This document shows positions 8,872 to 43,800 of a DNA stretch of 64,000 nucleotides, one piece after another. The number at the start of each line of letters is the position of its first letter. Positions within the stretch are counted from its first letter, which is position 1. This stretch comes from Marsupella aquatica (lineage: Eukaryota > Plantae > Marchantiophyta), in assembly GCA_973895155.1 (NCBI GenBank), contig OZ316892.1:1006917-1070916 (forward strand), written 5' to 3'. Both the position numbers and the translations under genes were made by a program. Below the pieces are notes generated by a model. That model saw nothing but the letters and a program-made list of their open reading frames with translations, had not been told where the DNA came from and ran no database searches.

Positions 8872-10049
8872 CCTTTTCTTAGAAACTAGCAGCCTGGCGA
8901 ACAGATCGAGTGTGACCAGCTGAGCCTGCATGGGAAGCTTATCCATAGGCGAAGGTATATTTTTCGTTGCCAATCTTTGCCAAAATCTCACCTACTCTGG
9001 CGAATGATACACTATTAAAGTCGGGGGGAAAATGATGCAAATTTGGCTAAAATCTGCCATTAGCTTGCAGTTGATTAGCCAGCTCTTCGAAGAGGTGACT
9101 GGTAATGATCCCAAAGATCAAGCATAATCCACTGGCTTCCACAATTTTAATAATACTTTTTCAGCGATATAAGGCGGGTCCCATCTATTTTCCCTCCTAG
9201 ACTCTTGAGGCATCCTCAGTTCTCCCTCACAAAATCACTGTTGGCCGTGTGACATCAAACGATGATTGTGGGTACACCCACCCACCTTCCCAGGTTGGGG
9301 AAATCTGACTTAATTTTGATCGTCCTTCTGTATAGAGTGCTGAGAGGCCTTACCGATACCATCAAGGAATTTCATGGAACACACAGATTCTATATTGTGT
9401 GCTTACTTTTGCTATGACCAAAGAGAGGGGAGCCCGAGTTTATTGCTCTTGTTCAGTACCTTTGTAACATAAACTTTGTAACAACTTGTACTTTACTCTG
9501 CATGTGCTGTACTTCTACTTTCTTATTTTATTCCACCCATTCAATCTTAACAAATACTGTGCTTTGCATGATTGTGGTACTTGTACTCTTGTATTTTGTC
9601 CCACTCAGTCTGAACAAAGCAAATACTATTGATTTCACCAGCCACAAAGAAATTAGATTGCCTACTCATCACTCCAAGACGAAATTGAAACACGGTCTTA
9701 GATGAACATACTACATATGGAGTATGTACATTAATTTGAGAAGATTTTGCCTTACATTAGATGAGATTTTTATTTTGGGTCCGCTGGCCCCCTCTTCACT
9801 GACGGAGTTTATATTAGGGCGTCTCAAACTAGGTGTCCCGCGGAACTTTTCAGCTGCCGGGAATCCGCAGGGAGGACTCTGACCGCAAAATAGTCGGTGC
9901 CCGAAATTGGTGACCGTCAATAACCCGGCCGGTCATCTTACCGTTACCGCAACCGGAAGTTGACTACAGCCGGGTTACGTGAGGCGTTTAGGATACGTTT
10001 TGACGGGTTTAGGTTACACTTTGTTCGGCCTCGTAGTTCAACGCTGCTT

Positions 10050-10215
10050 GTGACGCTGCGGCTTTGCGTGTGCGAAATTCCTTCGACATTGTGAATGTGA
10101 TTGTGCAGCTTGCAGGGCGTCCATCAAGGAATGTGAATGACGCTGTGGCTTTGCGTGTGCGAAATTCCTTTGACATTGTGAATGTGATTGTGCAGCTTGC
10201 GAGTGTCCATCGACG
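10050..10215. repeat. 87-bp tandem duplication inside the PHIS element
   Basis: TGACGCTG(C/T)GGCTTTGCGTGTGCGAAATTCCTT(C/T)GACATTGTGAATGTGATTGTGCAGCTTGC occurs twice, 87 bp apart. Confidence 0.9.
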
Positions 10216-10291
10216 TTCAACATTCTTGCTTTTCCTGTAAGTCCTTATCCTTTTAAGTCGCCTCAGTCATTACTACTCGCTCTCTTCGCCA

Positions 10292-10951
10292 ATGTTCAAT
10301 CGCAATCAGGATATGAAAATGCCTGAATGCTTGCTTGTCTGCCAGGAGGCCATGGCTCAGTGGATGTCTCTATCAGACGTGGAGGAGAAGAGGGCTGAAG
10401 GGATCAGTATGCATTTCCCACCGTCTTTAGTCTGGGCAGCGAACTACACAGCCCAAAATCCCTACCCGAGGAAATTTATTTACTCTTCTTGCCCCCACAG
10501 AGACGATGATGGTGAGTGATGTAACAAGTCCCTGGAATTTGGCTCAAAATGTGGGCATCACCTACCTGGAGAGCCTGCCTTCCGATTCCAATTGGTTCTG
10601 TTTGATGCCATTCATGGTGGTGTGCAGCCTGTGAAGGTTCTCCTTTGGAATTGTGCTAGCATTCTTCTAAAACATACTCCACTTGAATTCAGCGTTCTGC
10701 CTGAATATGAGCAATGTACAGTAGTCCATGACATTCTCAAGCAATCGCCCAAACTCCAAGTCTCACTTGAAGTGAAAGGTCTTGAGATGCACATTAAAAG
10801 ATTGACTTTTGTGGATGCTGGAATTCCAAGGACACCTACTCAAAGCTCTATCAAACCAAAGTCCTCTCCCGGGAAACAACAGAGTGCAAAGAAAATTCTT
10901 GCAGACCTTGTGCTGCAATTGAGGAATGCAGATTTAGAGGACTTCGAATAG
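10292..10951 (+). pseudogene. RPA70 C-terminal-like (Zn-ribbon OB-fold) ORF, ~219 codons with one in-frame TGA at 10517-10519
   Basis: Track ORFs 10292-10519 and 10592-10951 share a frame. Reading through gives FIYSSCPHRDDDGE*CNKSLEFGSKCGHH...FRFQLVLFD...VKVLLWNCASILLKHTPLEF, matching the RPA1 DBD-C pattern YxACP..CNKK..C..C..RY.L.+.+.D...+.+F..A..+LG.+..E. Confidence 0.6.
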
Positions 10952-11134
10952 GGATAGAATAGTCTACTTGCTTTGGACAACAATAATGTACTTGGTTATT
11001 ACATGAGAAATACATTTGTTTTGCACTTATTCTTGTGAAGGACTATGCATGACGATTGTTGCATTGTGTTCATAGCTTCATCTGTATATGCACTGACTTT
11101 CTTCATCTCTGGATGACAGCTCTTGCGCTCGAAA

Positions 11135-11533
11135 ATGCCTCGATTTTCTGAAAGGCAGAGAGGCTTGAGACAAGTAAGGCAACACCTCGAATTGGCCATT
11201 GTTGTACAGAGTTCTGAGAGTTCTGAAGATATTGGATGTGTGGACCTTGACCTAGAACAATTCTCAGACTTTGACAAAGACAACTTTAGTACTGACATTG
11301 AGTCCGACTTGGCTCTGGATAGCTCATCTGATGATGAGAAAGGAGAAGAGTGGTCCGACTCTGATGAGAATCCAACCGACCTGTTAGAGCTGTACTTTGT
11401 GATGTACAATACTCGTTATTTTGTTGATTGTCATGTCAGCCTTAAATCTAAAGAATTTGCACAACAATTCTTCCATTGCTTGGCCGATCCTTTGTTTAGG
11501 CAGCTCACTAGGATGGACAAGTCTTCGCACTAG
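11135..11533 (+). pseudogene. Harbinger transposase N-terminal remnant (DDE domain deleted)
   Basis: MPRFSER..., an acidic tract, then ...TRYF...LADPLFRQLTRMDKSS, the conserved FR..RM.+.+F motif that precedes the HTH of HARBI-type transposases. The ORF stops immediately after it and no DDE residues follow. Confidence 0.7.
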
Positions 11534-11610
11534 AACCAGCCTGACATTCCATAGTCTGCGAGGCTGAAATTTACATTGTAAACACATAGATCATTCAAAG
11601 AACCTAATAG

Positions 11611-13071
11611 TCATTCGTCGTCAATGTTGATTGGTTGGTTGTCATAAGGTGGCATAGTAGTAGTGGGTGGACGAGCCCTGCGAGGAGGGCCAGCATTGAC
11701 ATTGGAAGGAATAGGGGGAATAAGATTCAAGAGGGATTTCATTTCATCCTGAGATCGATTACCCCTAAAGAGCTCTGTAAGCAACGCTGCGTGCTGCTGG
11801 TGATGGATCAAATCTACCTGGTGTTGGTGCTCCAACCGAGCCCTCTTCTCCTCATGCCTCCTTTGTATTCGATCCTTCTTGTCTTGCTGAGCTGCTGCTA
11901 CTTCTCTAGCCTCTTGCCTATCAAGTAATTCTTGGGTTCTCCACTTGTCCTTAGTTTGAATCATCTCTCGTCTGTACATAGACTTGTCACCAATCTTGTC
12001 TAGGTAAAGGTCGGCCATAGATGATCTAGACTGTGCCTGCGCTGAAGGCGGGGCAGCCCTCTTATTAGGAACACGCCTTTGCCCATTCCCAGGTGGAGTA
12101 GGAATAGGCCTAGATTGCGACTCCTCTTCGACACTGCCTGGTGTGCCGGTGTTAGCAGTGTTTTGCTCAGTCGCTGCGGGTTGGGCATGAGTTTGAGTTC
12201 CACCATTCACTTCAGAAGCAGTGTGGGGAACGTCTTCTTGCTGCGTTGGTGCTCCATCGTCGACAGGAAATTCAGATTCATCCTGTTGCAGCCCAACATT
12301 GTCATAATCTTGTGCTTCATCATCAGACGTTGGATCACAAATGAGCTCAGGCTGGCCAGGTATCCCACATTGAGCCAACGCTGGAGGTGCCACATTAGCC
12401 CGCTCCCCATAAAGCTGACTCATCCGTTCAAAATGTGGGAAAATCTTCTCGAGTTTGTCTTCCAGAGTAATCCCCACCCTCAGCTCAGCCAAGGTTAGCC
12501 CAGCGCCAGAGTCACTTTTCATTGCCAGGGCCTCCTTCCACTTGGATGTGTATCTGTTAAACCTCTTTCCCAGATTCTCTCCTGTCGTCACAAACTTGGC
12601 AAATCCGTTAGAATGCAGGAGCACAAGCATCAGTTTGAAAACTGTTTTCTTCAAGGGATGCTTCTCCCCAACTGCTAGCCGAGCTCGCGACCCATGAAGC
12701 ATGGCATAGTTGTTAGGATCTTCGAGCCAATCTACTATCTTTGATAAGTCATCCCTTGACAACTTTATGTTCTCAGCAAGAGTGCTTGTTGCCGGACGAG
12801 GTGCAGATCTAGCTTGTGCTCCACCGGATGCACCACCTACGACCATAGCTTCGACTGCTTGAGAATCCTGCACGAAGTCAGTTGGTCCAAACAAATTCTG
12901 AATCTCAAATTGCCGTGCTTCGCCAAATTCATGTGCAGAGTCATGCTCACAAGGGTCCATGGTATCCTCTATAACAGGGGCTAGCCTCTCACTCGGATCC
13001 CAAAATTCTGCGTCAAGTTCTGGGGGGGGAAGTTTGAGACTTTCAAATGTTTCGACGAAGTGGCTGCACAT
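11611..13071 (-). CDS. Harbinger-associated Myb/SANT-like DNA-binding protein, 486 aa, intact
   Basis: IVDWLEDPNNY...KWKEA...SGAGLT...LEDKLEKIFPHFERMSQLYGERANVAP is the pattern of the second ORF of fungal/oomycete-type Harbinger elements. It is followed by an acidic/disordered middle and a C-terminal coiled coil, and lies inside the TIRs. Confidence 0.75.
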   Translation of the reverse strand: MCSHFVETFESLKLPPPELDAEFWDPSERLAPVIEDTMDPCEHDSAHEFGEARQFEIQNLFGPTDFVQDSQAVEAMVVGGASGGAQARSAPRPATSTLAENIKLSRDDLSKIVDWLEDPNNYAMLHGSRARLAVGEKHPLKKTVFKLMLVLLHSNGFAKFVTTGENLGKRFNRYTSKWKEALAMKSDSGAGLTLAELRVGITLEDKLEKIFPHFERMSQLYGERANVAPPALAQCGIPGQPELICDPTSDDEAQDYDNVGLQQDESEFPVDDGAPTQQEDVPHTASEVNGGTQTHAQPAATEQNTANTGTPGSVEEESQSRPIPTPPGNGQRRVPNKRAAPPSAQAQSRSSMADLYLDKIGDKSMYRREMIQTKDKWRTQELLDRQEAREVAAAQQDKKDRIQRRHEEKRARLEHQHQVDLIHHQQHAALLTELFRGNRSQDEMKSLLNLIPPIPSNVNAGPPRRARPPTTTMPPYDNQPINIDDE

Positions 13072-15659
13072 TCATGGCTCCTTGTCAAAATGTGCGTGGA
13101 AGTCTCATGGTGGCGAGAGTAAAAAACGGCAGCATCAGTGACGATTTCGAACTAGATATGGGCGGGGGCGAGTTTTATTAGTCCGGCACACCCGCGGTGG
13201 GCCCTCTCAAAGTAAGTACCCCGTTGGTCCTGCGCACCCGGGACTTGGGTTTCGGTGACCGTCTTGGCCGGGAATTTAGGGGGACGGCCGTCCGGGAAAA
13301 AGTTCCGGGTGCCTAGTTTGAGACGCCCTATTAGTGTGACGGGAACTTTTCCAACACAATATCATATACAGGCCAATGCAGTGGGGCTGTGGCGGACTAG
13401 CTACTGTAGTAGGGTTTGTAAATGAAACTGTGCCAGATGTCCACCCACAGTGAAATGTCACCTCAGGTTAGCATAGTTTACCTAAGTTAACCTATATTGC
13501 AAATGGGGGCAGATTTCTAATTACCATACAGTAGTTCTGGAAGCAGGTTTAATTCAGAACGAAGACTACAGTAGTGAGTAGTCTGGGGAGTGGGATAGTA
13601 AAACATGGTAAAACATTGCCATGTCAGCTATGGGGAATGCTCGTACAATCGAGGAGCTCTGCATGGAACGTCTGTAAAGTTGGCGGGACTTTTAATTTAA
13701 GTCCTGATACAGTGATAACTCATAAGGGAGGTGAGATTGTGAAGACAAAGGTCTCCTGACCCAACAGTGTCATTCCCAGGTTGACAGGAAAATTAGGTTC
13801 GAGCCATGCCCAGGATTCCCTCTTTTTTCGGGTGGTCACTCCTTTTTCTATTTTAGTTGTCACTTAACGCCCTTAGTGATTTTTGTCTTTGTTCTGGGCA
13901 TCTGTGGAAAGGTATACACAGTCAAGATTTGTATCTGTCAGCTCATTCTGAAAATTCTACTCTCTTTTCACACAACCAGTAAACCTATAAATCTCTTAGG
14001 CCTTGAATTAAGCGTACTATAAGTAGTACTACCCCGAACAAGAACTTAGGCTAGTTCTATCTTCAGCCAATATATAAAAGTGGTGCAGGGGCAAGTTACT
14101 GATTAAAATAGTTTTGCCACCATGTTAGAAAGCGAGGACTACAGTAGTTTGGGGACCAGGTTAGTAAACTTTGTGCAATAATAGCACCTCAAAACTCGAG
14201 CTGAAATTTGATGGGTACGTTATGGCACACAATACCTTGTAAAGTTGTAATTTGATGCTGTCTGCTGCTTCAGGGAATGGGATTTTTTGAAATGTTCGAG
14301 GCCCAATACCAACAGATATCTCTCGATCCAGATCGAACGAACAAGTGTGGACTGATTTATGAATTCTGTTCCAATTTACATGGAATGAAGTGCAATAGTA
14401 AGTTTTCAAGGCGACAAGTCCTGACCAGACCAGATGATTTATGAATGACCTGAGTTATTTAACGTGAGACTACATGACATGGCAAATTAACCACTGTTGC
14501 CCCTATCTGGTACGAAACAGTAGTGTACTTCACTCTAGAGTCGTCACTCGTCACCCACTTCCCACATTTCCCACATACCCACGCCTCTGGCCAGTCTGTG
14601 GCGTGATGAGGTCGGTCCCTGCACGCGCACAGCAAAGTGCATGAGCCTGGGCTCCGCTGGCTCTGCCATTCTGCCAATGTGTGAAGCGATGGAATAGATC
14701 GAGGTCATAAAACTCCAAAAATAGGAGGTGATCAGGTGACCTAAGGGTGTGCGCACATTCCCACAACTCGTCAGAAGAAGGTTGGTCAGATATTGTTGGA
14801 CCAATAGTCTAAGATAGCCTTACGGTTTTATTCTCTACTTTTTATATTAGGAGAGAAGAGTCAAGAGTACATGAGAAATAAAGTGCCAGCGGAGGACATC
14901 TCATTCGTATGGTGGGTCACAGCCATTTATTTAAACAGACCGAGAAAACCTGGAGCCCTGGAGGGACCACTTCCAAGAATAGCAAAAGCCCCAATCCAAG
15001 AGCCCCTTCCCCAGCTGCACAAAGAGCACACCCGAGATCAAAAAGGACCCAAATACTTGGGACTCTCGGGCTCTTTGGTCTGACTCCTTCTTTGTGGTCT
15101 CTCCTTTGATAGGGTCTCATGCATGTGGGCTCAAGTCTCCAGGTTGCGCACCTCTTGTTTTTTTTGCAATGTGATATATAGCAGGTACCTAAGACCCCAA
15201 GCTAATTAACACACCAGAAAGGACCCCAACTAAGACGGGATTTATGAGTTCATTTTGATTAGGTGAAAATCTTACAGAGGACAAAAACAAGAAAAACCAC
15301 AAGCAACACATAGTTTCAGATTAAGGAAATATTTGACTGTAGAAGAAAGAAAGGTGGGTAAATGAAAATAATTAAGAAAAATACTGAATCAAGTAAGCAG
15401 TCACGTAAATCATCAGTTGAAAAAATGATTAAACATAAGCTCAAAGTTAATTTGTAAACAGGGAAACACTAGAACGACCCCTCCAAAATTATTAGAGTAC
15501 CTTAGAATTGACTATATCAATTGTTAAGTTCTACCAAAGAGTTTTGGTCAAACTGACTAAACAAACACTGACTTTTGTCAATCTTTCATACCATAGTGCT
15601 TGTGACAAAGAGACGCAAACACAGCTACCTGAGACACTGTACCGTTTAGTGAAAATACC

Positions 15660-19214: not shown

Positions 19215-21707
19215 AGTTGCGCAGGGATGTCTTCTTTATTGGCAGAATAAAGGGCCGTGTCCATTGCACAGATTAAAGCTTGGTAGTTTTTCATACACCC
19301 ACTGAATTCGGTGGAGAATGTCCAAAAAGACAAGACAAACTTTTGTAGTACGTCTTCGCATACAAACGTGGTGTGGTTAGGTCCGCATTACACACCTGCA
19401 GCGTTGAAATATCTGTCTCCACAACAAGCACTTAAGGTGCTGTGAAACCTGGACGAAGATTTCAAACGAACACACTTATTCAAAAAATGCAATGTAAGGT
19501 ATTGAAGGAAGCAAGTCCCGACATAATTGCGTAATGATCAGCTGTCTGCGATGCGTACATTTCTATAGATTAAAAGTAAAGCACAGAATTACCCATCGTG
19601 ACGCATGATGACTGACTAATTAATTGCCATTTGATCAATTTAAATTAGGACGTGATCGGGGGCACCTAGCAAAGGAACCTGGTAAAATATATTGCGAAGG
19701 AACCGAACAGTCGACCAAACGGGCAGGCAAGTCAAGTTTGATTGACCACAAGGACGGAAGAGGAGAGACCATCTCAGGCCACAGACCTAGAGTCGGCATT
19801 TCCATGAATGATACCCTCAGACAATAATGTCGAAACGATTCACCATCACCGCGTGCACGTTAAGAAGCTTGGCACACCGGAGATGTGGCAACGCCAAGCT
19901 GTAAGCCTTGGCTAATTGGGCTGCCGCATCCACCCAGATCCCATTAGTTCCATTTGCTGCGGCCATAGGCTGCGGTGAGCACCCCAGAAGCCCAATCCCG
20001 CCGAGGCTCACTACCTTTCGAACTCCCGCGGAATTCATTGTCTGCACGCGTCATGATTATGAAGAATTAGTGTAAATATGTGACCGAGATATTTACGGCT
20101 TACAAATTTCACAGCTCAAATATGAATCGGTAATCCAGCGTCAATTCATGTGAAACAGCATAAACGATTCGGAAGGGTTGGCTGTAGTTCTACAGTAAAC
20201 AATTGCCAAATAATTGCCCAAACCCAGACCAGTGTCTCCTAATTAACTTTGAAACATGTAGGTCAAGCTTGCTTCATCGTTCCCGGGATTCATTTCCAAA
20301 GGACAGAAAATACCAGGTCACTCAGATCGATCCATGGCGGATCTACCTGGCCCTTGCACCTTCACATGCGCCTCTAGGTTAAAGCCAGAAAGTATATGAC
20401 TACATCTCAGCGATTTTTAAGAGATCTCTATGGTAGGCTGGTTATGTTTTGCTATCAAGCGCGTCCAACCCATAAGGAGAACAAGTTCGATTCAAGGATG
20501 AAATAGGATTGGGAAATTACACAGCAATGATCCACATATTTGTGAACGAAATGCACCTGAACATGTGCTCGACGCTCAGAAAGAACTCTGGGGACGAATT
20601 TTGTAGAGCTGACAATTTGGTGTAGAGTAGAACTTCTGAAGTATCCCGACAGATCGTTGCTGCCAGTGGCGAAAGAGTGCATGGAGTTGGAGATCAAATT
20701 CCCGGCAGCTGCCGCGCCCAAGTCGCTTGTCAGCTTTGTTGCAACTTGCTGAGACTGACTGACATGAGTTGTCAGAAGAATAACGCCCTGTCGAGATGAT
20801 AGTTTAGTGTCAGTCCTCCGATATTGGAGGGATTACTTGGAAGCGTATTCAAAACTAGTAAGCCCATCATGATATAAGACGAACCACCGTAGGACATCGT
20901 GGTAGATGAAACATTAATGCATGATTGTGGATCCACTATTGGACTTAAACCACCATGACCGGTGGTGGAAAGGACTCCACTGCCTCCAGATGCAAAGTTG
21001 GCATCTATTCCAAAGGCAACTCTCGGTTGCAGAAACGGTGGCACGAAAGGCAGACCAAGACGAGAAGCTGCAAAACCAAAGTTTTTGACGACAGTTTCGC
21101 CACACAAACTGGTCAACGTGTGGTAATCTCCATGAGAAACTGACAGTAATTTCTGGCGACTGAGCAAAAATGCTCTTCCCTCGTTCGGATTGCCTTTAAA
21201 GTAGACGAAAGCTCGATTGAGGGATGTCTTTCGACCACTGAACTATCAACATCTCGATTGAGGGATCTCTTTCGCTGTTGAACAATGAACATTGTAGGTA
21301 ACACCAATACATAAGGGCTGCGGTGGAGCAACTACTGTACAGCCTCCTAAGCTTTTAGACGTACCTTGAGAGTCCAAGGCAAGACATCCACTAGAAAACC
21401 GTCTAATAGCCCTGTGGAAATAAATCGCGCCACAGGGACGACAATCAGCGAGCCGGGTCGAAACCTCGATCATTAATTCGTTGGTTTCAGCGTCTACGAG
21501 CTCTGAGTCTCCAAACGCAAAGGTTGCTGGCACTCTTGTCCAAGGGTAAGCCACAGCAACGTTCGTCCTGCTGCAAAGTCCAACTATAAGAAGCGAGAGC
21601 AGGACCGGCCAGCGCCTGAGTACTGCAGCCAGTTTGCTCCATGAGTCCTCCCCTGGGGGGTTTTGCTCAAGTCTTCCTAGGCTCGCAGATCTCGAGATGC
21701 CGATCAA
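19215..21707 (-). pseudogene. GDSL esterase/lipase pseudogene, 5 exons
   Basis: Exon 1 (21707-21365): hydrophobic signal, VPATFAFGDSELVD...RFSSG. Exon 2 (from 21067): ASRLGLPFVPPFL...ANFASGGSG. Exon 3 (to 20557): ATGSNDL. Exon 4 (from 20041): AGVRKVV.LG.IG.LGCSP. Exon 5 (~19448-19215): SACCG..YFNA..*CG...CED...FW/DILH. Contains in-frame stops, frameshifts and many substitutions at conserved sites. Confidence 0.85.
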
Positions 21708-23430
21708 TAGAAAAGGTTGGAGCAGAAAACAGCCGGAGACGACTGTAATCCACGAGAAAGCTGTCCAACAAAGGTCTCGTAGCCTTTAGAAGGGGGACTG
21801 TTTCTGAAGTAGTCAAAAATCAATCGTGGATGATAGTAGTAGTGCAAAGTCGGTTCGCACCAAAGGTTGTCACTTGAAACCTCCAGACCGGTGGAACTTT
21901 CGAGACCGGTGGAACTTTCGATCGTTAGAATCGAGTTAAAATGTGTGAGAAGAATTGACCAACGAAGGGGAAACTCTTGAAAGCTGTTGTTGTTACGTCG
22001 ACGGTGTTGTAGTAGTTGTACTCTCAGGAGTTCCCTGCAGGCATATAGATAGGACTCTAGGTGATGCATATGGCATCGATTTAGACCTGTGCCTGAAAAC
22101 TTTATCAAATCCAGTCGCCATGGTCCAGCTGCTGCTTCTGCTACTTGTCGAAGGGAGCAATCATAATTATGAAGAAGAGCTCGTTCTGATATCGATCCAG
22201 CATGCTTGTCACAGTATAGCCCAATTGAGCCAATCTGGCAGCGACGAGGTCGATTTTGACTAGGGAACGCGTGCATTTCCTGCTTCTTCCTCCTCCTCCT
22301 CAGGATGCAATCACAATCGCAACTCCGGCACAGCACGCCATCCATTTCGCTCGCTGAATTTGATTTCTTGACAATGCAATCATCTCACTTTGGCTCCGGA
22401 CGTCCACTCGGACTCGGATCCAAAGCATGCACCGGCAGCAATATTGCCTCCCATCGGATCTCCTGCTGCTGCCCTCCCAGGAAGACGAAGACGCCTTCGT
22501 GCTGCGGTCGACACTTCTCACGCAGCCCAGCGGCACCCATCGCCACGATAGCAGCTGTAGACGTGTCCGTCTGTCTGTATAGACTTCAATAACAAGTTGA
22601 GAACTACTCCTACACAGCCCAAAGCACTGAAGAAACACACCCAGGTCAACCCAATTTGGTACTGATTAAAGGAACTGAGGAAGCTGCCCGCCCTCCCGCC
22701 CACCCGCCCAACCCTCCGCCTGGCCAACCATCGATCCGCCCGCAGTTGTCTCAGGCAGCTGAAAACCCAGCAGGCACCTGCTTGCTGCTGCTGCTGTTCC
22801 CCCATTAGTCATCATCCTTCTGTCGCTCTGATGATCATCCCATCGATCTTGGGACTGTAGTATCAGCAGCAGAGTAGAGTGAGGGAATTTCTCAAATCGT
22901 TGGCGTAATTTCCTTTCCTTTCTTTACTGTTTTGGTACAGTGCTGCAACAGAAGGATGCAGAACCACTTCCTGTGCTGCAGGACCTGAGGAAATGACGTA
23001 CCCTAACGATAACTTATTACTGGCAACGATCGTTGGATCTAAGTGATTGACGCTCCTTCTCCCCTTCACCTGCCATGACTGGGCGGCGATTCATCCTGAA
23101 TGAATAGAATTTATTTACGCCTTGAAAGATTCCAGGGAATTCCTGAATGAATATAAATTCGTCAGTCTTTACGCATCACTGGCGTCTCCTTTACTGGCCT
23201 CTTGCTTCTGCTCACAATCCTTCAGTAATTGGAAGTACAACCATGCAATTCTCCTTAGCAGTTGCAGTCTTGCACACAAAGATCCGCCAATTTCCGACAG
23301 GACAGGTTGAGACAATCCAGAAATTTAGACCGGCAGTTGTAATGACTATTATTGAGAGATTTGCACGAGAGTCAATCGTTTGTAGACTGAGACTCCTTAT
23401 CCAGGAATTTTGCGTTTGACATCATTACCT

Positions 23431-29432: not shown

Positions 29433-31829
29433 CTAACCAACGACTCCACGCCTTTCCTCCTCCAGCCAATGTGTAATGGCATCCTGGAATGGGAAATCAT
29501 CTAAAGAGAAAAACTTCTGAGTAACATATGCACCGTGCAATCCAAATGACTCCCCAATCTGTTCCTAGGCTTACTCTTCACAAATGACATAGTGGAGAAA
29601 ATTTGTTCATCCTCCACTGAACCTGTCACCATGACCACAGCAATTTCCACAAGCTTCAACCACTCCCCCATCTTTGCCCGAATCAAAGGATTCGCCCCCA
29701 ATCTCTTCCATAGCCGTGTCATGGGATTTTTAATGTCAGCGATAAACTCTTGCTCTCCCATTACCTTGGCAGCATTCGCCTCCATGGTTAGCTTGAAAAA
29801 ACTTTGTTCGTCTCGCAGCAAGCTCTAATTGAGAATAGGATCAATGACAGCACTGTCCTCACCTGATTCACCTGAAGGCACGGGAAATCGCCTTTGGTTC
29901 ATAGAAGTTTGTCTTGATCACTTGAAGGTACCAGCCAAAATTCTCCTCTGCATCGTCTCTGTCCCAATACTGTGGATGGACTATGCCCAAAGTGTTCAAC
30001 ATGTCAACGTTAGGAAACCATGTGTCAAACAGCTTAATCAACTTTGATGTTGCTTCTTTACACTGATTCTTCACAGTATAAACAACATGGTCGAATGCAT
30101 GTTGTGTAACGAACAAGTCATGCCCAAGAATCTCATCAAACCAATGGGTCGGATAGGTGTGGTCACCAATTCCAAAGGAGAGATACTCCATGCTAGTCTC
30201 CAAATCAGTCATCCACTCATGACTAACAGTTTGTGATCAACCAGCTACAATCTCCTGAAATGTATGAAATGCCCAGGGCTGGCCTAATCCACGAAATAAC
30301 AGTGCAATTCTGCCTGATGTACCTTTACAGCACTAATGAAATCTTGGATCATGACATCCCTGGATTGGGCAAACACAATCAGGTCATGCACAGATTTCAG
30401 CAAAGGCAATAAACATGGCAAGGATGTGAACGTCTCCAGGTCCAATAATAGCTGCCTTCGCATTGGACTTTGCAGTTGCAAGTGTGGCCTCATCTGTAGA
30501 TATTTGCACAACAAGTGTCTTGTACTCACATAACACACTCTGCAAGGGTTGTAGAAGGGAAATCCATCGAGTCTTGCTGTTCCGTTCAATCTTCCGGCCC
30601 TCGGTCTCCAACTCAGCAGCTAGCAGTTGAAACTCTAGTTGTTGTTTGGGGCTATGATCAAAATATGAATGCAGGCTGGAGACAAGGGCCTCAGTCTTCT
30701 GTACAACTGGCAAGGAGTCCAATTTCTCCACACAGATGTTAGTCCTGTGAGCGCAACAATGCAAGCCAGTCATGAATGGAGCATGGTGTTTCTGTATGCA
30801 AGCCAAAACCCCTGTTTGATGCCCTTGAAAAATGGCAGCTCCATCTGGTCCAAAGCTCACTAGCTTTGAAGCTACTTCTTTCCAGCCAAGATTACCGCAG
30901 TCTCTAGTCAAGGACTCCACCACATGCAGTAGCAGTCAAGTTCATAGCATCAGTGCCATTGGTCAACTTTTGCAAGGACAGTAGAAAAGGGATTCGTTCC
31001 CACCCTCTCATCACATAAACATGAATGCTTATCCATGTAGTGTTGTCAATGGCAGTTACCTCATTGGCAGACACTGAGATGTAACGAGCTCCAAAACACC
31101 ACTCCCGAGTCTTCAAGCAAATGATGTGGAAAATGCTCTCTGCCATTCCCAAGCCTGAACTCATGCTCCAGTGTGTGGTCGGTGTCTCTAGAACCCTTAA
31201 ATGTTGAAACAACTTCAACATGGCTTCATAGTCAGTCACGGGACGTCCCAACATAAGCAAACTAAAAAGAACAAAAAATTGGACTGCCTTTCAAGACTCA
31301 CTGCCTCTTGAATCTGCCGATGGATGGGGTCTTGTGGTAGCCGCAACAACTTCTCATTCTTCTCATGTTGAGTAGTACCGAAAAAATAGAAGGTGCCCTT
31401 TGCATACTTCTTGCCTTGGATAACCATGGCCTTCTCTGCACGCCTCCTTCCAGCATGTTTCCAAAGACCATCAATCTTTGGAACATATAGCTTTTCCCTC
31501 CCTTCAATCTTAGTGCAGATTGTGCACCGCACTTGGGTGACCACCCTTTCTATGTCCACCGTAGCTGTTGTCGCCTAGGGATGAATAGCTGCCCATCCAA
31601 GCTGGAAGTGGGACTTCATCTCATAGCTACGCTTCCGCATCTTGGTCACTTTTTCAGCCTTCACATCTTCAAGAATCACAACATTGGGGTCTACACCGTC
31701 TGCCTTGCTATTGACAATCTCATTCTCAATCGGAGAAGCACTTGGAGACAAAGACCTAGAGCCATGAAAGACAGGGGAGCCATTAAGATTGCAAGGCTTC
31801 AAACAATTACTCAAAAAGTACTTAACCAT
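29433..31829 (-). pseudogene. ZNF862-like hAT transposase pseudogene; 5' part continues at ~37703-37990 beyond the Copia insertion
   Basis: Motifs ISVSANEVT (DE-like), SFGPDGA, HCCAHRTN, KTRWIS and GSVEDEQIFSTMSFVKSKPRNRL (dimerisation domain), split by multiple stops and frameshifts. Confidence 0.9.
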
Positions 31830-34800
31830 TGTTGTAATAGACAACTAAAGGAACGCTCAAAGATACTCCAACAAGATAGATCCATTACTATTGATGAGGG
31901 GATATATATATCCCCTTGGTTACATGGTAGGCAAATGCCCTTATACTGGTCCTATGGTTAGGAGTTCTCATACTATGGTTAAGGGTTCTCGCCCTATGGT
32001 TAAGGGGTAAACTAGGGTTTACAACACTCCCCCTTGGTTAGTTTATGGAGGAGCATAAAGTAACCACATCTCTTGAACCTAGGGTATAATCCGGTTTAGG
32101 GGTCCACCTGTGTGATGTAGCCTCATTAAAACCTCGCCGCTTTCTTCTCGAGGAAAGAGTGCTACCATCACTTATATAGGTGGTTTCCCATATCTAATGT
32201 CCTGGTTAAGCCTTTTTGCCATGTCTTAGTTAGTGTTAATCGTATGTGCTAAGTGGGGTTATGTGAATGTTCCTAATGGGTGTCTAGTCTCCCCCTCAGC
32301 TCGTTGCCTGGTGTGCGCCTCGTGTTGTTCTTCATGTCGTTTTGCGTATTGCGCTTCGCTTCGTGTTGTGCTTTGGGTTAGTGAGGCCAAGTCGGGCGTT
32401 TTTGCGTTGGTTTGCGTTGTTTCACGTCGGGGATGTGGTGTGGCGCTCGCCGAGTGTGGTGGTCGGGCATCTGGAGGCGGCTTCATCGGGCGACAGCTTC
32501 GTCGTTGGGTAATCCTTTCGAGCTTCAGTGTTATGAGGTGGGCTTGATCGTGGACAATCTGCTCATGCCTATGCCTTCGAGGTGCGCTCTGTGCAATCCG
32601 GCTGGTAGTGGTTTCGTAAACATGTCTGCTCGATTGTCCTGAGATTTGATCCATGCAACATTGATACTTTTCCCTTGTTGTTCTTGCGTGAAGAAATACT
32701 TGGGGTCAATATGCTTGGTCCTCTCGGTCTTCAGGATTCCGTTGGTTATCTGGTCGATACACGCCTTATTGTCTTCGTAGATTGTGGTTGGCTCTGTTAT
32801 CTGTGGTTTACCGGTGCTGGACCTAATATGATTGATAATGCTTCGTAGCCATACAGCTTCTCTGCACGCCTCGTATAACGCTATGATTTCCGAGTGGTTG
32901 GATGACGTTGTGGTCATCGTTTGCTTTGAACTTCGCCAAGATATTGCTGTCGTCCCCTGTAAGAACACGTACCCAGTCTGTGATTTGGAGTCCTGGGGGT
33001 CCGACAGGTAGCCGGCATCAGTGTAACCGGTAAGCGTATCGGGGCTATTCTTAGGAAAGAATAGTCCAAGGTCGATCGTCCCTTGTAGGTATCTCATGAT
33101 CCTCTTGATGCCGTTCCAATGCCTGATGGTGGGCTGTGCGCTGTGTCTCGCTAAGAGACTGACGGCGAACGATATGTCAGGTCTCGTCTGGTTCGCTAGA
33201 TACATAAGGGCGCCCACCGCTGATAGGTACGGTTTTTCTGATCCCAGTATGGGTTCGTCTTCTTGGCGCTTCCGAAACATATCTTTGATCGGGTCTAGAG
33301 ATCTGAGTTCCATCGGGGTGGAGACAGGGTAGGATTTCTGCATGTTGAATTGATGAAGTATCTTCTGCGTGTATGTCGATTGGTAAAGGAATATGCCTGT
33401 TTCTAAGTGTTCGATCTGCAGGCCTAGGCAGTGGTTGGGTCTTCCAAGGTCCTTCATCTCGAAGACTCCTTTCAGTGTATGTATTGTGTCTTTCATCATC
33501 TGTTTAGTCCCGAATAAGTTCACATCGTCCACGTACAGTGCTAGTATCAGGACTTCGTCCATATGCTTTTTGATGAAGATGCAGGGGGCCAGTCCGCTAT
33601 TTGTAAATCCGAGGGCGAGCATCTCTGTCTGGAATTTCTGATACCAGATTCTGCCGCTCTGTTTAAGTCCGTTGATGGAACGTAACACTTGGACTGTAAG
33701 TTTTGTTGTTAATTTCTTTCCTCTGGTATGCATTGCCTGTGTATTTCCACTTTGCATCAAGAGGGCCTTTGTATCCCCATCAGGTATTATTTGGCTGATG
33801 CCCTTTTTAATCTCTGTATTCAGGTTCTGGGACGTCTCCCCCTGAATGTGCTGCTTGACCCTCTCTATCAGTTCCGGGGGGGCAGTCATGTATATCTCAG
33901 TATCGAGTGTGCCGTAAAGGTACGCGGTTACCACGTCCATAAGGTTATTAACCAGTTTATGGTGGACTGAATGTGCTGTGAGATAGCGATATGTAGTAGC
34001 GTCCATTACTGGTGAGTATGTTAAATCGTAGTCCCTGCCCGGGATTTGTGTGTAGCCTTTGGCTACTAGCCGGGCTCGATATCTTACTACTATGCCTTTC
34101 TCATTTCGTTTTTTCAAGAATGTAAATCGAGAGTCGGTGTAATGTGTACCTGGTAATGCCATTTTAAATGGTCCGAATACTTGTCGCTTGATGAGGGCGT
34201 CCATCTCGGTATGTATTGCTGCTTGCCACTTTGGCCAATCTGGTTGTTTCTTTGCCTCGTTTATAGTGAGCGGATCAGGAATATCGTTGGTGATTTCCTG
34301 TATTACGTTATAGGCAAATTGTTCATCAATTTGGGTTGTCAGTCGTTTATATATGTTACCTGTTTGCATGTATGTGATTGACATTTCCTCGTTTTCTTCA
34401 CTCAGTGGGTCGTTTTGATTTATCGCTGTCACGTTAAGTGTGATCGCTGGTTCCAGCGCGGGTGTACCCAAGTTTGCTGCTGGAGTTTTACGTTGGCGAG
34501 GCTGGGAGTCCTTGATCCCTGGTGGTCTGCCTCGCTTTGCTCTGGGGGCTGTTACATTGGCCGGTGTCGAGGAGGTTTGTACTCGCGATGGCGCATTAGC
34601 TGCTAAGTTGTGGGATCTTGTGACATTTGCAGCGTCGTTAAATGAGTCTGGAATCTTTTCGAGCATTTCATGTAGGTGGAGAAGTCTTCTGACTTCTTCG
34701 TCTGCCTGCTTGGTTCTGGGGTCATTTCTGTTTTGGTCTGCTTTCCAATTTATGGGCATTTTCGTTGTGTCCTTGGATTGTGTTGATGCTGTATTCGTGA

Positions 34801-37702
34801 GCTGTGGGAATTGATCTTCATAAAAATGGCAGTCCTGATGTCTTGCCTTGAACAGGTCTGCCGTAGTCGGTTCAAGGTATCTAATGATCGAAGTAGAGTC
34901 AAACCCAACATAGATACCTGCATTCCGTTGGGGTCCGAGTTTTGTTCTCTTTGGTCCTAAGATAGGCACCATTACCTGGCATCCGAAAACGCGTAGGTGG
35001 GACAGGTCCGGTGGTATGCCGAACGCCAGGTGGTATGGTGTCTTAGAGTTATATGCTGACGGTCTATATTGGATTAGTGCAGCTGCGTGAAGGATGGCAT
35101 GTCCCCATGCTGATGTGGGTAAGTTTGACTTCATTAACAGTGGTCTTGCCACCATTTGAAGTCTCTTAATAACCGACTCAGCTATACCGTTCTGAAAATG
35201 AACGTGGGGAACTGGATATTGAGTATCGATGCCCGCTGCCCAGCAAAAGTCGTCGAATGTTCTTGATGTGAACTCGCCAGCTCCATCTACTCTTAATCTT
35301 CTTGTAGGATACTCTGGGAACTGTGCTCTTAATTTAAGAATATGTGCTAAGATCCGCGCAAATGCCAAGTTGCGGGTAGATAGCAATGAAATCTGCAGCC
35401 ATTTAGTTGATGAGTCGATGATTACCAGGAAATATTTGAAAGGGCCGCTCGGGGGGTCTATAGGTCCGCAGATATCTGCATTGATCTGCTCTAGGAACTG
35501 TGGTATTGAAAATATTGTTTTTGGTATTGATGGTCGTATGGTCATTTTTCCTTGTGAGCACGCTATGCAGGCTGTTTTTACCTTTGGCTTGACTGTCTTG
35601 GGGATTCCTTTGGAGTCCCTTATAATCCTGTTGTACATAGTGGTACCCGGGTGGCCCAGTCGACAGTGCCAGATGTATGTCATATCCTCTGATTCTTGGT
35701 GTATATGGAATGTTTGGATACTGGTTGCGTATAGGCCTGGGGGGATCAATGCAAATGTTTCTTTAATGGATGGCTTACCCTGTATGTCTTGTATGATCTG
35801 TAATGTCTCTGTTTTGCCCTGAGTATTCGTGCGCAGTTGGAGGTTATTGGATCTGATATCCTGGAAGCTGATGAGGTTTCGGGTTGCTTTCGGGGCATAA
35901 ATTGCTGACTTCACGGTGATTTTAGTTCCTCCTGGTAGTATAAATGTGGCTCGTCCTTTGCCTTCTTCTATATGATTAAGTCCTGCTATGGTGGTGATAG
36001 CGCGGGATGATGGGGTGATGGCCTCGAAATACTTGCTGTGTTTTAAGATAGTATGTGAGGTTCCGCTGTCGATGATGCCCGTATCGGGGTCGTCTAATGT
36101 CGGGTATTTCCAGTCAGTAAGAGAGGTATGTACTTCTATCTGTTCTTGTGTTTCTTCTCTCTGAGAGGCAATCAATTCTTCTTCTATCTCCATATAATGT
36201 CCTTGGGGGTTTTGTCTGGACTTATTTCTGTCGTTTATGTATCTGTGGGCCTCTTGTTCTGTGGCTGCACATGCGTTTCTAATGTGGCCAATTTTGCCAC
36301 ATCGGTAACACATTTTCTGGGAATTGTTTGCAGTGTCGTATTGGTTGCTTCGTCCTCTTCCTCTATTATTCATGGTGCCTCTGCGCCACGTGTTATTGGA
36401 TCCGGAGGGTCGGTTATAAGGTTTGCCTTGTCCTCTGAATTGATTTCTCCCGCCCCTGAATTGGTTTCTTCCGCCTCTGAATTGAGTTCGTCCGCCCCGG
36501 TAATTTCCTCGTTGTTTGTCTTCATAATTGGTGTAGTGGGTTTCAGGTCGATGTGGTGGGGGGTCTGATCCTGCTGGGCGCTTTCTGGCGTTTTGCAAGG
36601 CCACGATCTGTTGCTTCTCTTCCACAAGTAAGTGAGCAATCAGATCTGAGTACTTAGTGAAACGCATGTTCCTATATTGTGTACCTAATGTGATATTAGA
36701 TTCAGGGAATGTCGATAGTGTCTTATCGATTCTATCTATGTCATTTATTGGATGTCCACACATTTCTAATTGAGATGTAATTCTGCACAGTGCGCTATTG
36801 TAATTGGCAATTGTGGTGTGGTCCATGACGCGCAGGTTATGCCAATCCCTTCTTGCCTCTGGGAGCCATATCTCCCTCATATGATCAAATCGGGCTTTGA
36901 GGAGATCCCATAGTTTTCTTGGATTAATTTCGTTCATATACTCATTCTTTAGTTGAGGGGTTAGATGTTGCCTGAGTAGAAACGCTGCCTTAGCCTTTTG
37001 TTTGAGCGTGACATCGATGTCGGTATCTAAGGTGTCTTCAAGGTCTTGTGATGTAAAGTAAGTTTCGACATCTGTGATCCACGTCAAATAGTTGGATCCG
37101 TCGACTTTAAGTGCTGGCCATAATAATTTTTCGACTGTATTCATTATTCGGGATGTCAGTTGATTTAAGAACTTTGGTGAAGATTGAATCGAGTGAAGTA
37201 TCTCGATTGTACAATTGACCGGTTGGAAGCTTGTATATGGAGCTGAGGGAGCTTTCAATCATGCCAATAAAGTATTAGTCCTTTGGACTCTCGATATGCT
37301 GGTCCCGAATTGATGCTCTATGTGAAATTTCGTGTTTTTTTTAAAAAAAAATTCAACTCTGAGGCAAAAGAATGGAGACCAAGAAAAAAAACGGTTATGG
37401 CAGTTTCTAAAAAAAATGCCACTTTACGAGCATTCTCCTCGTGTAAAACTCGATTGCATCTGCTTGAAAAAAAATGATTTTAGAGACTGGCTCGTGCTGA
37501 TAACGTGTTGTAATAGACAACTAAAGGAACGCTCAAAGATACTCCAACAAGATAGATCCATTACTATTGATGAGGGGATATATATATCCCCTTGGTTACA
37601 TGGTAGGCAAATGCCCTTATACTGGTCCTATGGTTAGGAGTTCTCATACTATGGTTAAGGGTTCTCGCCCTATGGTTAAGGGGTAAACTAGGGTTTACAA
37701 CA
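31830..37702 (-). mobile_element. Full-length Ty1/Copia LTR retrotransposon, Bianca-like
   Basis: 197-bp TG...CA LTRs at 31830-32026 and 37506-37702, identical by eye. 5-bp TSD ACCAT. PBS CGTTATCAGCACGA at 37492-37505. PPT AGGGGGAG at 32027-32034. Confidence 0.97.
32531..37144 (-). CDS. Gag-Pol polyprotein (Gag, CCHC knuckle, PR, GAG-pre-IN, IN, RT, RNase H), uninterrupted, 1537 aa from the first ATG
   Basis: ALKVDGSNYLTW (Bianca-type gag start), CYRCGKIGHIRNAC, IIDSGTSHT, WHCRLGHP, ADICGPIDPPSGPFKYF, HFQNGIAES, LYVDDVN, YTDAGY, ADMFTKPL. Confidence 0.95.
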   Translation of the reverse strand: MNTVEKLLWPALKVDGSNYLTWITDVETYFTSQDLEDTLDTDIDVTLKQKAKAAFLLRQHLTPQLKNEYMNEINPRKLWDLLKARFDHMREIWLPEARRDWHNLRVMDHTTIANYNSALCRITSQLEMCGHPINDIDRIDKTLSTFPESNITLGTQYRNMRFTKYSDLIAHLLVEEKQQIVALQNARKRPAGSDPPPHRPETHYTNYEDKQRGNYRGGRTQFRGGRNQFRGGRNQFRGQGKPYNRPSGSNNTWRRGTMNNRGRGRSNQYDTANNSQKMCYRCGKIGHIRNACAATEQEAHRYINDRNKSRQNPQGHYMEIEEELIASQREETQEQIEVHTSLTDWKYPTLDDPDTGIIDSGTSHTILKHSKYFEAITPSSRAITTIAGLNHIEEGKGRATFILPGGTKITVKSAIYAPKATRNLISFQDIRSNNLQLRTNTQGKTETLQIIQDIQGKPSIKETFALIPPGLYATSIQTFHIHQESEDMTYIWHCRLGHPGTTMYNRIIRDSKGIPKTVKPKVKTACIACSQGKMTIRPSIPKTIFSIPQFLEQINADICGPIDPPSGPFKYFLVIIDSSTKWLQISLLSTRNLAFARILAHILKLRAQFPEYPTRRLRVDGAGEFTSRTFDDFCWAAGIDTQYPVPHVHFQNGIAESVIKRLQMVARPLLMKSNLPTSAWGHAILHAAALIQYRPSAYNSKTPYHLAFGIPPDLSHLRVFGCQVMVPILGPKRTKLGPQRNAGIYVGFDSTSIIRYLEPTTADLFKARHQDCHFYEDQFPQLTNTASTQSKDTTKMPINWKADQNRNDPRTKQADEEVRRLLHLHEMLEKIPDSFNDAANVTRSHNLAANAPSRVQTSSTPANVTAPRAKRGRPPGIKDSQPRQRKTPAANLGTPALEPAITLNVTAINQNDPLSEENEEMSITYMQTGNIYKRLTTQIDEQFAYNVIQEITNDIPDPLTINEAKKQPDWPKWQAAIHTEMDALIKRQVFGPFKMALPGTHYTDSRFTFLKKRNEKGIVVRYRARLVAKGYTQIPGRDYDLTYSPVMDATTYRYLTAHSVHHKLVNNLMDVVTAYLYGTLDTEIYMTAPPELIERVKQHIQGETSQNLNTEIKKGISQIIPDGDTKALLMQSGNTQAMHTRGKKLTTKLTVQVLRSINGLKQSGRIWYQKFQTEMLALGFTNSGLAPCIFIKKHMDEVLILALYVDDVNLFGTKQMMKDTIHTLKGVFEMKDLGRPNHCLGLQIEHLETGIFLYQSTYTQKILHQFNMQKSYPVSTPMELRSLDPIKDMFRKRQEDEPILGSEKPYLSAVGALMYLANQTRPDISFAVSLLARHSAQPTIRHWNGIKRIMRYLQGTIDLGLFFPKNSPDTLTGYTDAGYLSDPQDSKSQTGYVFLQGTTAISWRSSKQTMTTTSSNHSEIIALYEACREAVWLRSIINHIRSSTGKPQITEPTTIYEDNKACIDQITNGILKTERTKHIDPKYFFTQEQQGKSINVAWIKSQDNRADMFTKPLPAGLHRAHLEGIGMSRLSTIKPTS

Positions 37703-40895: not shown

Positions 40896-43800
40896 CTACT
40901 TGTGATGCAATTGCAAAACCTGCAATACGTCACGGTGTCTAGAGAAACTCTCCAAAGGAATCACTTTGGTAAATGCGTCAGCCGGGTTGAGTTTACCATC
41001 AATCTTGACTAGCTCAAACAAATTATCAGACACAGCCTGCCTGATAAAATGGTACCTGACGTCAATGTGCTTCACTCTACTGTCCATCACCTGGTTCACA
41101 GCAAGGTGGAGCGCACTTTGACTATCACAATGGAGCTTCACATTCCCCTGTGGCAATCCCATTTCAGTGATAAGTCTATCCAACCAAATCGCTTCCTTTG
41201 CTGCTTCCGCAGCTGCAACATACTCCGCTTCTGTAGTAGACTGAGCAATACACTTCTGCAAAGTAGACCTCCAACTTATGCATCCACCGCCAAGTGTGAA
41301 CACGTATCCTGTTGTTGATCTCCTTCGGTCCAAATCTTGTCCATAGTCAGAATCTACATAGCCAATCAATGATCTAGCATTCTTTGCATTCGCATCAAAT
41401 AAAAGACCATGATCCACGGTACCCTTCAAGTACCTGATAATCCACTTCACTGCTTCCCAGTGTACCTTCCCTGGATTCGACATGTACCTGCTCACCTTGC
41501 CCATAGCCATGGCAAGATCAGGTCTAGTGCAAGTCATCAAATACATGAGACTCCCCACTGCCTTGTCATATGGAACCTTTGACATCAACCCCTTCTCTGT
41601 GTCATCCGTAGGACAGAACGCTGATGATAACTTGAAGTGTGGAGCCAACGGGGTACTTACTGGCTTGCTATTCTCCATGTTGAACCTTGCAATTACCTTC
41701 CTCGCATAACTGCTCTGCGTCAACCATAGCTTTGCCAGCCTCCAAGTCCCTAGTGATCTCCATACCCAAAATCCTCTTAGCTGGCCCTAAGTCCTTCATC
41801 TTAAACTCTGCACTAAGCAGTGCCTTGAGCTTAACAATCTCAGACCTATCCTTGGCTGCAATTAGCATGTCATCCACATAAAGTACTAAAACAATGAACC
41901 CAAAGACAACATTCTTCACCGGTTTCAAATACACACAAGGGTCAAATACACTTCTATGAAAACCTTGTGACCGAATCCAATCGTCAAACCGCTTGTTCCA
42001 CTGTCTTGGTGACTGCTTCAACCCATACAAGGATTTCAGCAATCTGCAAACCAATTCCTCCTGTCCTCTCTTCACAAAACCTAGCGGTTGTCTCATGAAG
42101 ATCACCTCTTCCAATGTGCCATAGAGGAAAGCTGTGACAACATCCATCTGATCTAGGAGCAGACCAAACATTACAACAAGTACACACAATAGTCGTATTG
42201 TAGAGTACTTAGCAACTGGTGAGAAGACCTCATTCTAATCCACACCTTTCTCTTGTGTGAATCCCTTTGCTACCAATCTAGCCTTGTAGACCTTCGATCC
42301 ACCTCCTATGGAATTATCCTTCAGCTTGTAAATCCACTTGCTGTCCACCACTTGCTGACCCTTAGGCAGCTTAACAAGCTCTCAAGTTTTGTTGTCCTTT
42401 AGTGACTGCATCTCTGTTTGCATTGCTGCAGTCCACTTTTGCTTCTCCTTTGAAGCACTTGCCTCATGAAATGAAGAAGGTTCTCCTTCTTCCAAAATTA
42501 ACGCATCACCCTCATCATCAGCTGTAAAATCATCCTCTTGCAGTTGAGATGAATCAACCCACTGTCCATACCTTGATGGAGCGCGTACAGTGCGACCAGA
42601 TGTTCTTCTAGCCGATGACTCCGGTTGATCTGCGTGTGCTGGTACAATTTGAAGCTCAACAGCATCCACTTGCTGCTCACCAGCATCAACAAACTCCTCT
42701 GGTTCCTCTGGCACAGGAACCAGCTCCATAATTGGAGCAACTCCTTCTCTCCGGTCATGCACCTCATAACCAATCTCCCCCTCAACGAGATCCGGGATAG
42801 GAGATTTTCTTTTGTCAGTACGGGAGACCTGAGTATTCTCCCCCTCCTTCAATAATCTGGATTCATTGAAGGAAACATCCCTACTGACAACGAGCTTACA
42901 GGCAATAGGATCCCATAGCCTATAGGCTTTCACACCACTCTGGTACCCAAGAAAAACACATTTCCTGGAGGTAGGATCCAACTTGGTCCTATTCTGCTTT
43001 GGTGTGAGAGCATATGCATCACTTCCAAAAATTACCAAGCCATGATAGTCTGCTTGCCGCTTATAGCGCATCTCAAACGGCGTTTTGAAATTGATAGCAC
43101 TAGAAGGAGAAAGATTTACCAAATAAGCTGCGGTATTGACAGCTTCTGCCCAAAATTCTTGTGGTAAACCTGATTGGCTCAACATACTCCGTGACCGCTC
43201 CAACAGTGTCCGATTGAGCCTCTCAGCGACACCATTCTGCTGCGGAGTATAAACTGTGGTGAGATGGCGAGTTATCCCCTGTTCTGAACAATACTCTTCA
43301 AATTCCATTGAAGTGTACTCCCCGCCGTTGTCTGACCTCAAACTCTTCACCCTTGTATCCAAACACTTGATCGTGTTTCCAGTCTGATTCTCCACCTGGG
43401 CCTTCCATTTCTTAAAAATGGACAAGACATCAGACTTATGCGTCATGAAATAAATCCACACAAATCTTGAGTAATCATCAATAAATGATACATAGTACAA
43501 CTTTCCAGAGTGTGAGGGAGTCGGGGATGGACCCCACACGTCACTATGTATGTACTCAAGAACCGCTTTGGAACGATGAGTTCCAACACCAAAAGCACGA
43601 CGATGCTGCTTTCCAAGAATGCAATGCTCACAAAACTCTAATTTACAAGATTGCAAATCAGAAATGAGTCCATTCTTCCGTAAGATAGCCAAACCCTTCT
43701 CACTCATGTGGCCTAGCCGTGAATGCCACAGTTGAGTCATCTCCTCATGAGACTTGGTTACATTGGCCTCTCCACATACAGTATTGCCCTGTAACACATA

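Follow-up and report, generated by a model that had tools for sequence, protein, structure and literature searches.

Pangu transposons have been defined by ANT target-site duplications, terminal inverted repeats (TIRs) of 11-40 bp that start with AG or GG, and a length of about 3.5 kb, according to the available text of their description (Han et al. 2015, PMC4482050). The same text gives TWA as the duplication of canonical PIF/Harbinger elements and states that the second open reading frame (ORF) of Pangu is mostly motif-less, with a Myb domain in 2 of 23 Pangu rows among those listed in Table S3. In the accessible portion of Kojima 2025 (PMC12730594), Pangu is equated with Harbinger2 of Repbase, and HarbingerS elements are described as related to it. 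ANT elements of Ectocarpus carry two tail-to-tail genes, as far as the available part of that report goes (PMC12477816). Accessory genes are already known from PHIS elements (SET, TET), as are RPA-like genes from Helitrons. Here we describe what is very probably a three-gene member of the Pangu type, in which the additional gene resembles the DBD-C domain of RPA70.

The locus lies within a 64-kb stretch of DNA, referred to here as the window. The TIR-bounded element occupies positions 9816-13329 (3,514 bp). Its TIRs at 9816-9833 (+) and 13312-13329 (-), AGGGCGTCTCAAACTAGG, match perfectly over 18 bp, with imperfect similarity on the left extending to about 35 bp; a pattern search of the window returned these two matches, against 0.06 expected. 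Reading the TIR from AGG leaves matching ATT trinucleotides on both sides (9813-9815, read from the sequence, and 13330-13332), whereas reading it from GGG leaves the non-matching flanks TTA and TAT, so the TWA duplication of canonical PIF/Harbinger elements is not found. On account of its ATT duplication, the element fits the Pangu/Harbinger2 type of PHIS transposon (ANT) and not the TWA group. An 18-bp perfect TIR that begins with AG and a second ORF of 486 aa in which we recognize no motif are in keeping with this assignment; the restriction of Pangu to two ORFs is not, given the third gene found here and in diverged subfamilies. The original prediction of a three-gene PIF/Harbinger-type PHIS element was thus partly supported: PHIS membership and the third gene stand, canonical type does not, and the underlying observation holds with corrections detailed below.

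Neither a second copy of the element nor a further homologue of the third gene was detected elsewhere in the 64-kb window. Other mobile sequences are present. An open 1,575-aa polyprotein frame at 32531-37258 (-) belongs to an apparently intact retrotransposon, which from its motifs we take to be of Ty1/copia type, and a second element at 40896-45219 (-), presumably copia-type, is broken into four frames. A decayed Helitron Rep/helicase occupies 53284-56917 (+; Helitron_like_N, E 1.5e-15; PIF1, E 4.7e-7). The frame at 30384-30935 (-) has no Pfam match at 0.01 and, judging from a motif, presumably resembles a hAT transposase fragment. Pseudogene-like pieces lie at 19817-21785 (-), where two frames were tested and gave no Pfam match at 0.01; from motifs, we take them to resemble a GDSL-lipase pseudogene.

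Two of the three genes correspond to the pair expected of a Pangu element. About 130 codons at 11135-11526 (+), an acidic tract followed by a helical part, make up the 5' portion of a gene that we infer to be the transposase, an assignment that stays indirect because the DDE core is absent from the window copy. For residues encoded from 11135, the Atlas lead is to DUF8418/DUF8040 clusters (0.94), a weak one in that its recognition value of 1796 is below the tool's 2300 mark; DUF8040, we assume, precedes Harbinger DDE domains. ORF2 (11611-13071, -) is open over 486 aa and lies tail-to-tail with the transposase. It has two homologues, one from Calypogeia fissa (CAM6114749.1), and matched no Pfam or PDB domain; a profile of only three sequences gave no match to Myb/SANT.

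The third gene lies upstream of the transposase at 10352-10951 (+). Its 199 codons are predicted to encode a single, free-standing OB fold of the RPA70-DBD-C type that includes a CCCH zinc site, followed by a linker and a C-terminal amphipathic helix. The frame from 10292 to 10951 is open except for a single TGA at 10517-10519, just as originally read, and the motifs quoted at the time are present. Six public sequencing runs of three organisms (X1-X6) contain the stretch, X1 possibly being its source, and their contigs were compared with the window over 9500-13600 (X1, X2, X3 and X6) and over 10340-10760 (X1, X3, X4 and X5). At T10517, the whole of the covering contig depth in X3, X4 and X5 carries C; in X1 the figure is 45.8 out of 61.2, the other contig being aligned there with two gaps that offset each other. 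Two homologous proteins, P0004 and P0005, have Arg at the stop position, and P0004 is open. The premature TGA is therefore private to the window copy, and the guess that it arose from CGA proved right. The start, in turn, had been placed at 10292; close homologues begin at window M21, so we rejected that position for 10352, the likely initiation codon. An intron spanning the stop, for which the window copy offers a consensus donor at 10512, was also considered and rejected, as homologues are colinear across the region and other copies differ there.

The single-sequence Pfam and PDB searches gave no match for the window OB protein, and assignment to RPA70-C therefore rests on the family profile and the predicted fold. 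The fold was modeled on the intact relative P0004, not on the window protein, using an alignment of 52 members (pLDDT 90.9; an alignment of three rows gave only 35). All ten Foldseek matches at E<=0.001 are chains of RPA70 DBD-C or Teb1 OB-C, the best being RPA70 DBD-C (8.3e-6), which is the outcome anticipated when a structural search was proposed. An independent structure search (VIA) placed Teb1 OB-C first (Z 13.5, rmsd 2.8, 136 aligned residues) and RPA70 next (Z 13.4 and 13.1), these three at rmsd about 3 over 136-139 residues, and then archaeal RPA and POT1C. The family profile matches yeast RPA1 (6i52_C) at E 0.0046, and an Atlas lead agrees with the RPA70-C assignment at 0.88. Pfam Rep_fac-A_C (PF08646) matches 3 of the 52 members at E<=0.05; P0067 scores 30.4 against a curated cut-off of 28.5. 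A search of a viral fold library gave no match at E<=0.001. The protein is thus predicted to fold as RPA70 DBD-C/Teb1 OB-C with an inserted zinc ribbon; the proposed fit to RPA1 DBD-C stands at the level of profile and fold, but not as a Pfam match of the window protein itself.

Conservation across the family points to retained DNA-contact features. Yeast F537 is a conserved DNA-contact residue, according to the available text of the report from which we take it (PMC11848354; 6i52_C numbered from residues 442-619), and the column aligned to it holds F or W in 50 of the 52 members. Tyr44 is found in 50 and K/R41 in 48, with a P-x-[KR]-F-x-Y motif ahead of the first Cys. The three Cys zinc ligands are kept in 52, 50 and 50 of the 52 members and the His in 45, and the commonest spacing is C-x9-C-x9-C-x-H, seen in 26 of the 48 members that have three Cys. 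A zinc site was therefore correctly foreseen, but its ligands differ from the four Cys of yeast RPA1. The domain has a mildly positive net charge (median +1; positive in 31 of 52). The C-terminal amphipathic helix follows a low-complexity linker and recurs across clades among the 29 members listed; Foldseek rmsd over the whole chain is 13-16, with the helix placed otherwise than that of RPA70.

Homologues were sought among 1.84 billion representatives, one per 50% cluster, yielding 87 matches at E<=0.001, 36 at 1e-10 and 11 at 1e-30; 27 of the 87 are shorter than 150 aa. Removal of P0090 (1,650 aa, repetitive) as spurious left 86 clusters, from which the 52 near-full-length members of the alignment were chosen. 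The median length is 209 aa, and the N-terminal DBD-F, A and B domains of RPA70 are absent, with more than 60 residues ahead of the domain in 1 of 88 proteins. P0004 and the window protein are identical at 152 of 197 positions. Organism names were obtained for 6 of the 29 OB proteins looked up, three from Calypogeia fissa and three from Riccia sorocarpa, all liverworts (CAM6082296.1, CAM6089791.1, CAM6129755.1, KAL3687891.1, KAL3693906.1 and KAL3696492.1). A tree of 62 members, drawn without an outgroup, distributes the three Calypogeia proteins over three clades. In six proteins of the clade with Riccia members (P0048, P0065, P0070, P0077, P0080 and P0093), the OB frame continues into a common downstream domain; it resembles neither the transposase nor ORF2 and had no Pfam match in the four proteins scanned, possibly marking a different element or gene pair. 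Read-through of ORF2 or the transposase into any OB homologue was not seen at E<=0.1. A word-index search with the family alignment retrieved only three proteins, and neither a PHRPA (plant Helitron RPA homologue) nor a host RPA1 sequence came up in the searches. The homologues define a family of stand-alone OB domains that lacks annotation and goes largely unrecognized by Pfam.

The element is multi-copy, with multiple insertions. Summed contig depth inside it is several times the depth of the flanks in X1-X3, a ratio that is not a copy number, and the right end continues into other flanks in three contigs of X1 and four of X3. These right-junction contigs match the window through the A at 13330, after which their consensus reads A-T, giving A-A-T, again an ANT. 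A single contig of X3 connects 9806 with 13328, with 30 letters on its short side and the join known by coordinates only; the site therefore also exists without the element. A low-depth X5 contig has three short indels at 10712-10716, and other decayed copies therefore exist too.

The same comparison bears on the missing transposase core. Alignment with the window ends at 11523 in three X1 contigs and at 11526 in one X3 contig, the latter carrying on the transposase frame, and one contig resumes its match at 11534. Because other copies depart and rejoin in this manner, the window copy has likely lost the core by internal deletion, at a junction with seven bases between the break points (11527-11533). 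An X3 contig (record 17) has 1,218 bases ahead of 11588, unplaced among the alignments listed. Contigs about 85-89% alike bridge the end of the OB gene and the start of the transposase (X1 records 1 and 2, X2 records 9 and 10, X3 record 16). Records 1 and 9 have 100 different letters in place of the 128-bp spacer, and both coding parts still align. Adjacency of the OB and transposase genes is thus conserved in subfamilies at this distance. Beyond these runs, no locus came from metagenomes scanned with each of two OB alignments, from viral sequences scanned in turn with an OB alignment, the TIR and ORF2, or from prokaryote genomes scanned with ORF2 and, separately, OB.

Substitutions among the copies suggest that the OB gene is maintained by selection. 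The test took in the best-supported 40 of 99 differences, 26 of which could be attributed, from their matching contig depths, to a single diverged subfamily. In that subfamily, 15 differences are silent and 11 replacing, against an expected silent share of 0.29 (transition-weighted; p=0.002), and 15 fall at third positions (p=0.009); calculated by hand, the counts give a ratio near 0.3. Ten differences from the near-identical majority comprise four silent and six replacing changes, including the stop, and the other four listed divide into two and two. A frame kept open with dN/dS below 1 had been put forward as the check to make, and other copies, which read CGA at the stop and show this silent-site excess, point that way; the alternative of a one-off capture, raised at the same time, is disfavored. 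Together, these findings support the view that a multi-copy PHIS family carries the OB gene as an integral third gene, apparently under selection.

How the genes might be expressed is suggested by the ends of the element. The 5' subterminal region (9834-10236, +) and its 3' counterpart (13072-13311, -) are CpG-rich, with observed/expected ratios of 1.24 and 1.06 compared with 0.32-0.53 in gene bodies and 0.39-0.49 in the flanks. The former is likely a promoter and first non-coding exon, and the latter is likely the ORF2 promoter. A 63-bp direct repeat in the 5' region (10051-10113 and 10138-10200) was considered as a binding array, but a deep X3 contig lacks one unit. A candidate 5'-UTR intron (10237-10348, +) begins at a GTAAGT donor, the only one between the TIR and the transposase ATG, and AG is kept directly before GCCATG where other copies stop aligning (loose ends 10346/10347). 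Ahead of the OB start and again ahead of the transposase start (11118-11119) lies an acceptor-like AG; the second of these is more pyrimidine-rich in other copies, and in the window copy the first is not among the top 12 of 69 AG sites by pyrimidine content. As a lead only, the OB gene and transposase may share one promoter and first exon, and the transposase gene may have an alternatively spliced 5'-UTR intron (10237-11119) with the OB gene nested inside.

Its integral role, predicted fold and retained DNA-contact features lead us to infer that the OB protein is a single-stranded DNA (ssDNA)-binding helper acting at transposition breaks; this function and the three-gene architecture taken jointly fall a little short of an even chance. 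Donor ends would be resected after excision, and the ssDNA exposed there is what a cut-and-paste element would meet. The OB protein might coat it, either by forming oligomers of its own or by joining host RPA32/RPA14 in a core-only RPA devoid of N-terminal domains, while its C-terminal helix would dock on partners (itself, host RPA32/RPA14 or element proteins) and add avidity. Such coating could favor sister-templated gap repair, restoring the element and raising its copy number. In the haploid liverwort gametophyte, there is no homologue to copy from. Deletions with few filler bases are typical of gap repair that has been aborted, and the junction in the window copy could be a trace of it. 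Several points count against a helper: weak binding is to be expected of a lone OB domain, the C-type OB in POT1 and Teb1 relatives is used for protein contacts as well, the domain carries no more than a mild positive charge, and the helix sits behind a long linker, positioned unlike that of RPA70. Moreover, two-gene Pangu elements are described without such a gene in the available text (PMC4482050). In its boldest form, which we offer tentatively and consider rather unlikely, an old liverwort lineage of cut-and-paste transposons would encode its own RPA large subunit, pared down to DBD-C and a docking helix; this subunit would capture host RPA32/RPA14 or oligomerize, coat the donor break without checkpoint signaling and turn excision into copy gain, and the 86 clusters would be the footprint of the system across liverwort orders.

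The main rival, itself somewhat unlikely, casts the protein as an anti-silencing or checkpoint decoy, its helix binding host RPA32/RPA14 or another chromatin factor, weakening replication-coupled silencing and keeping the promoters of the element active. Conservation of the C-terminal helix would suit this role, as would retention of CpG in both subterminal regions when genes and flanks are depleted, although promoters rich in CpG are often seen where no helper of this sort exists. RPA2A mutants destabilize silencing in Arabidopsis, according to the accessible part of that study (PMC7687843), and precedents for chromatin-modifying accessories are given in the available portions of two further sources (SET in HarbingerS, TET in PHISTA and VANC in VANDAL; PMC12730594, bioRxiv 2025.02.11.637652). 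A pure decoy, however, would have no use for the basic loop and the DNA-contact aromatic, which are kept in 48-50 of 52 members and, acting in trans, it would be costly and of equal help to all elements.

A further possibility, which we regard as unlikely, is that liverwort transposons in general share the gene as a mobile cassette, which may have begun as an RPA-like gene of Helitrons and was then picked up by this Pangu lineage; it would be under selection here, yet most of its 86 clusters would sit in other elements and its job would not be PHIS-specific. There are at least three members each in Calypogeia fissa and Riccia sorocarpa, those of Calypogeia in three clades, and the Riccia clade has another downstream partner; the family is therefore not tied to the OB-transposase architecture everywhere. 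The ORF2 homologue CAM6114749.1 is not numbered beside the three Calypogeia OB accessions seen, a weak indication given one representative per 50% cluster and 29 proteins looked up. Accessory genes cross superfamilies, as with TET/JBP (PMC12730594, available text) and Plavaka PAGs, and Helitrons are reported to have acquired ssDNA-binding genes at least three times in the accessible part of that account (PMC4683698). Against a Helitron source, the plus strand of 9834-11135 contains no Helitron 3' end (CTRR then T), which also speaks against the nested Helitron fragment entertained originally, and the OB profile found no match anywhere in the window outside the element, the Helitron remnant at 53-57 kb included. 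A mobile cassette is compatible with either mechanism, repair helper or decoy.

That the gene is a passenger, a host fragment captured once (Pack-type) and carried without benefit, is very improbable: the broken window copy, the short database matches and the limited set of differences in the selection test would allow it, but the domain is whole with a common start and end, is open in other copies, shows a silent-site excess, is conserved along with the transposase where the spacer is not, and is too distant from solved RPA70 domains (12-18% identity) for a recent host fragment.

What appears to be new is a selected RPA70-C-like gene as the cargo of a cut-and-paste element. In the literature searched, RPA-like genes were not encountered in any TIR element, although one could be recorded in Repbase Reports, subscription journals or bioRxiv supplements, which lay outside the search. 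The Replitron paper does not mention RPA (PMC10288648). RPA-like cargo of Helitrons is explained by unwound ssDNA, whereas a cut-and-paste element has no such obvious need, and a selected gene of this kind thus suggests that the element itself encodes a factor that intervenes in donor-site repair or replication-coupled silencing. Copy gain by cut-and-paste elements, above all in haploid-dominant plants, becomes testable with one small gene.

Compared with Pangu/Harbinger2, the element shares the ANT duplication, the short TIR starting with AG, a length of about 3.5 kb and the tail-to-tail second ORF without a detected motif, but has a third gene upstream of the transposase and a DDE core that is not seen in this copy. 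It also extends Pangu-type elements to land plants; the 15 hosts named in the available text of the Pangu description include two algae and no land plant (PMC4482050). HarbingerS (SET) and PHISTA (TET/JBP plus a third protein) are likewise PHIS elements with accessory genes, as described in the accessible portion of the source (PMC12730594), yet their cargo is a chromatin- or DNA-modifying enzyme and not an OB-fold zinc-ribbon domain. The plant Helitron RPA homologues (PHRPA) are similarly divergent, transposon-borne RPA70-like proteins, but their carriers are rolling-circle elements reported only from monocots and dicots in the available text (PMC4683698), in contrast to the one C-type domain found here in a TIR element of a probable liverwort. 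The closest structural counterparts are RPA70 DBD-C (4gop/4gnx, 1l1o, 8rk2 and 6i52; PF08646) and Teb1 OB-C of Tetrahymena (3u50), with which the predicted fold (Z 13.1-13.5) shares an equally placed zinc ribbon, the Tyr before the first Cys, the F537-equivalent aromatic and a C-terminal helix. Unlike these, the protein described here has no DBD-F, A or B ahead of it, a CCCH site (9-9-1) in place of four Cys, and a helix set behind a long disordered linker, all at 9-18% identity.
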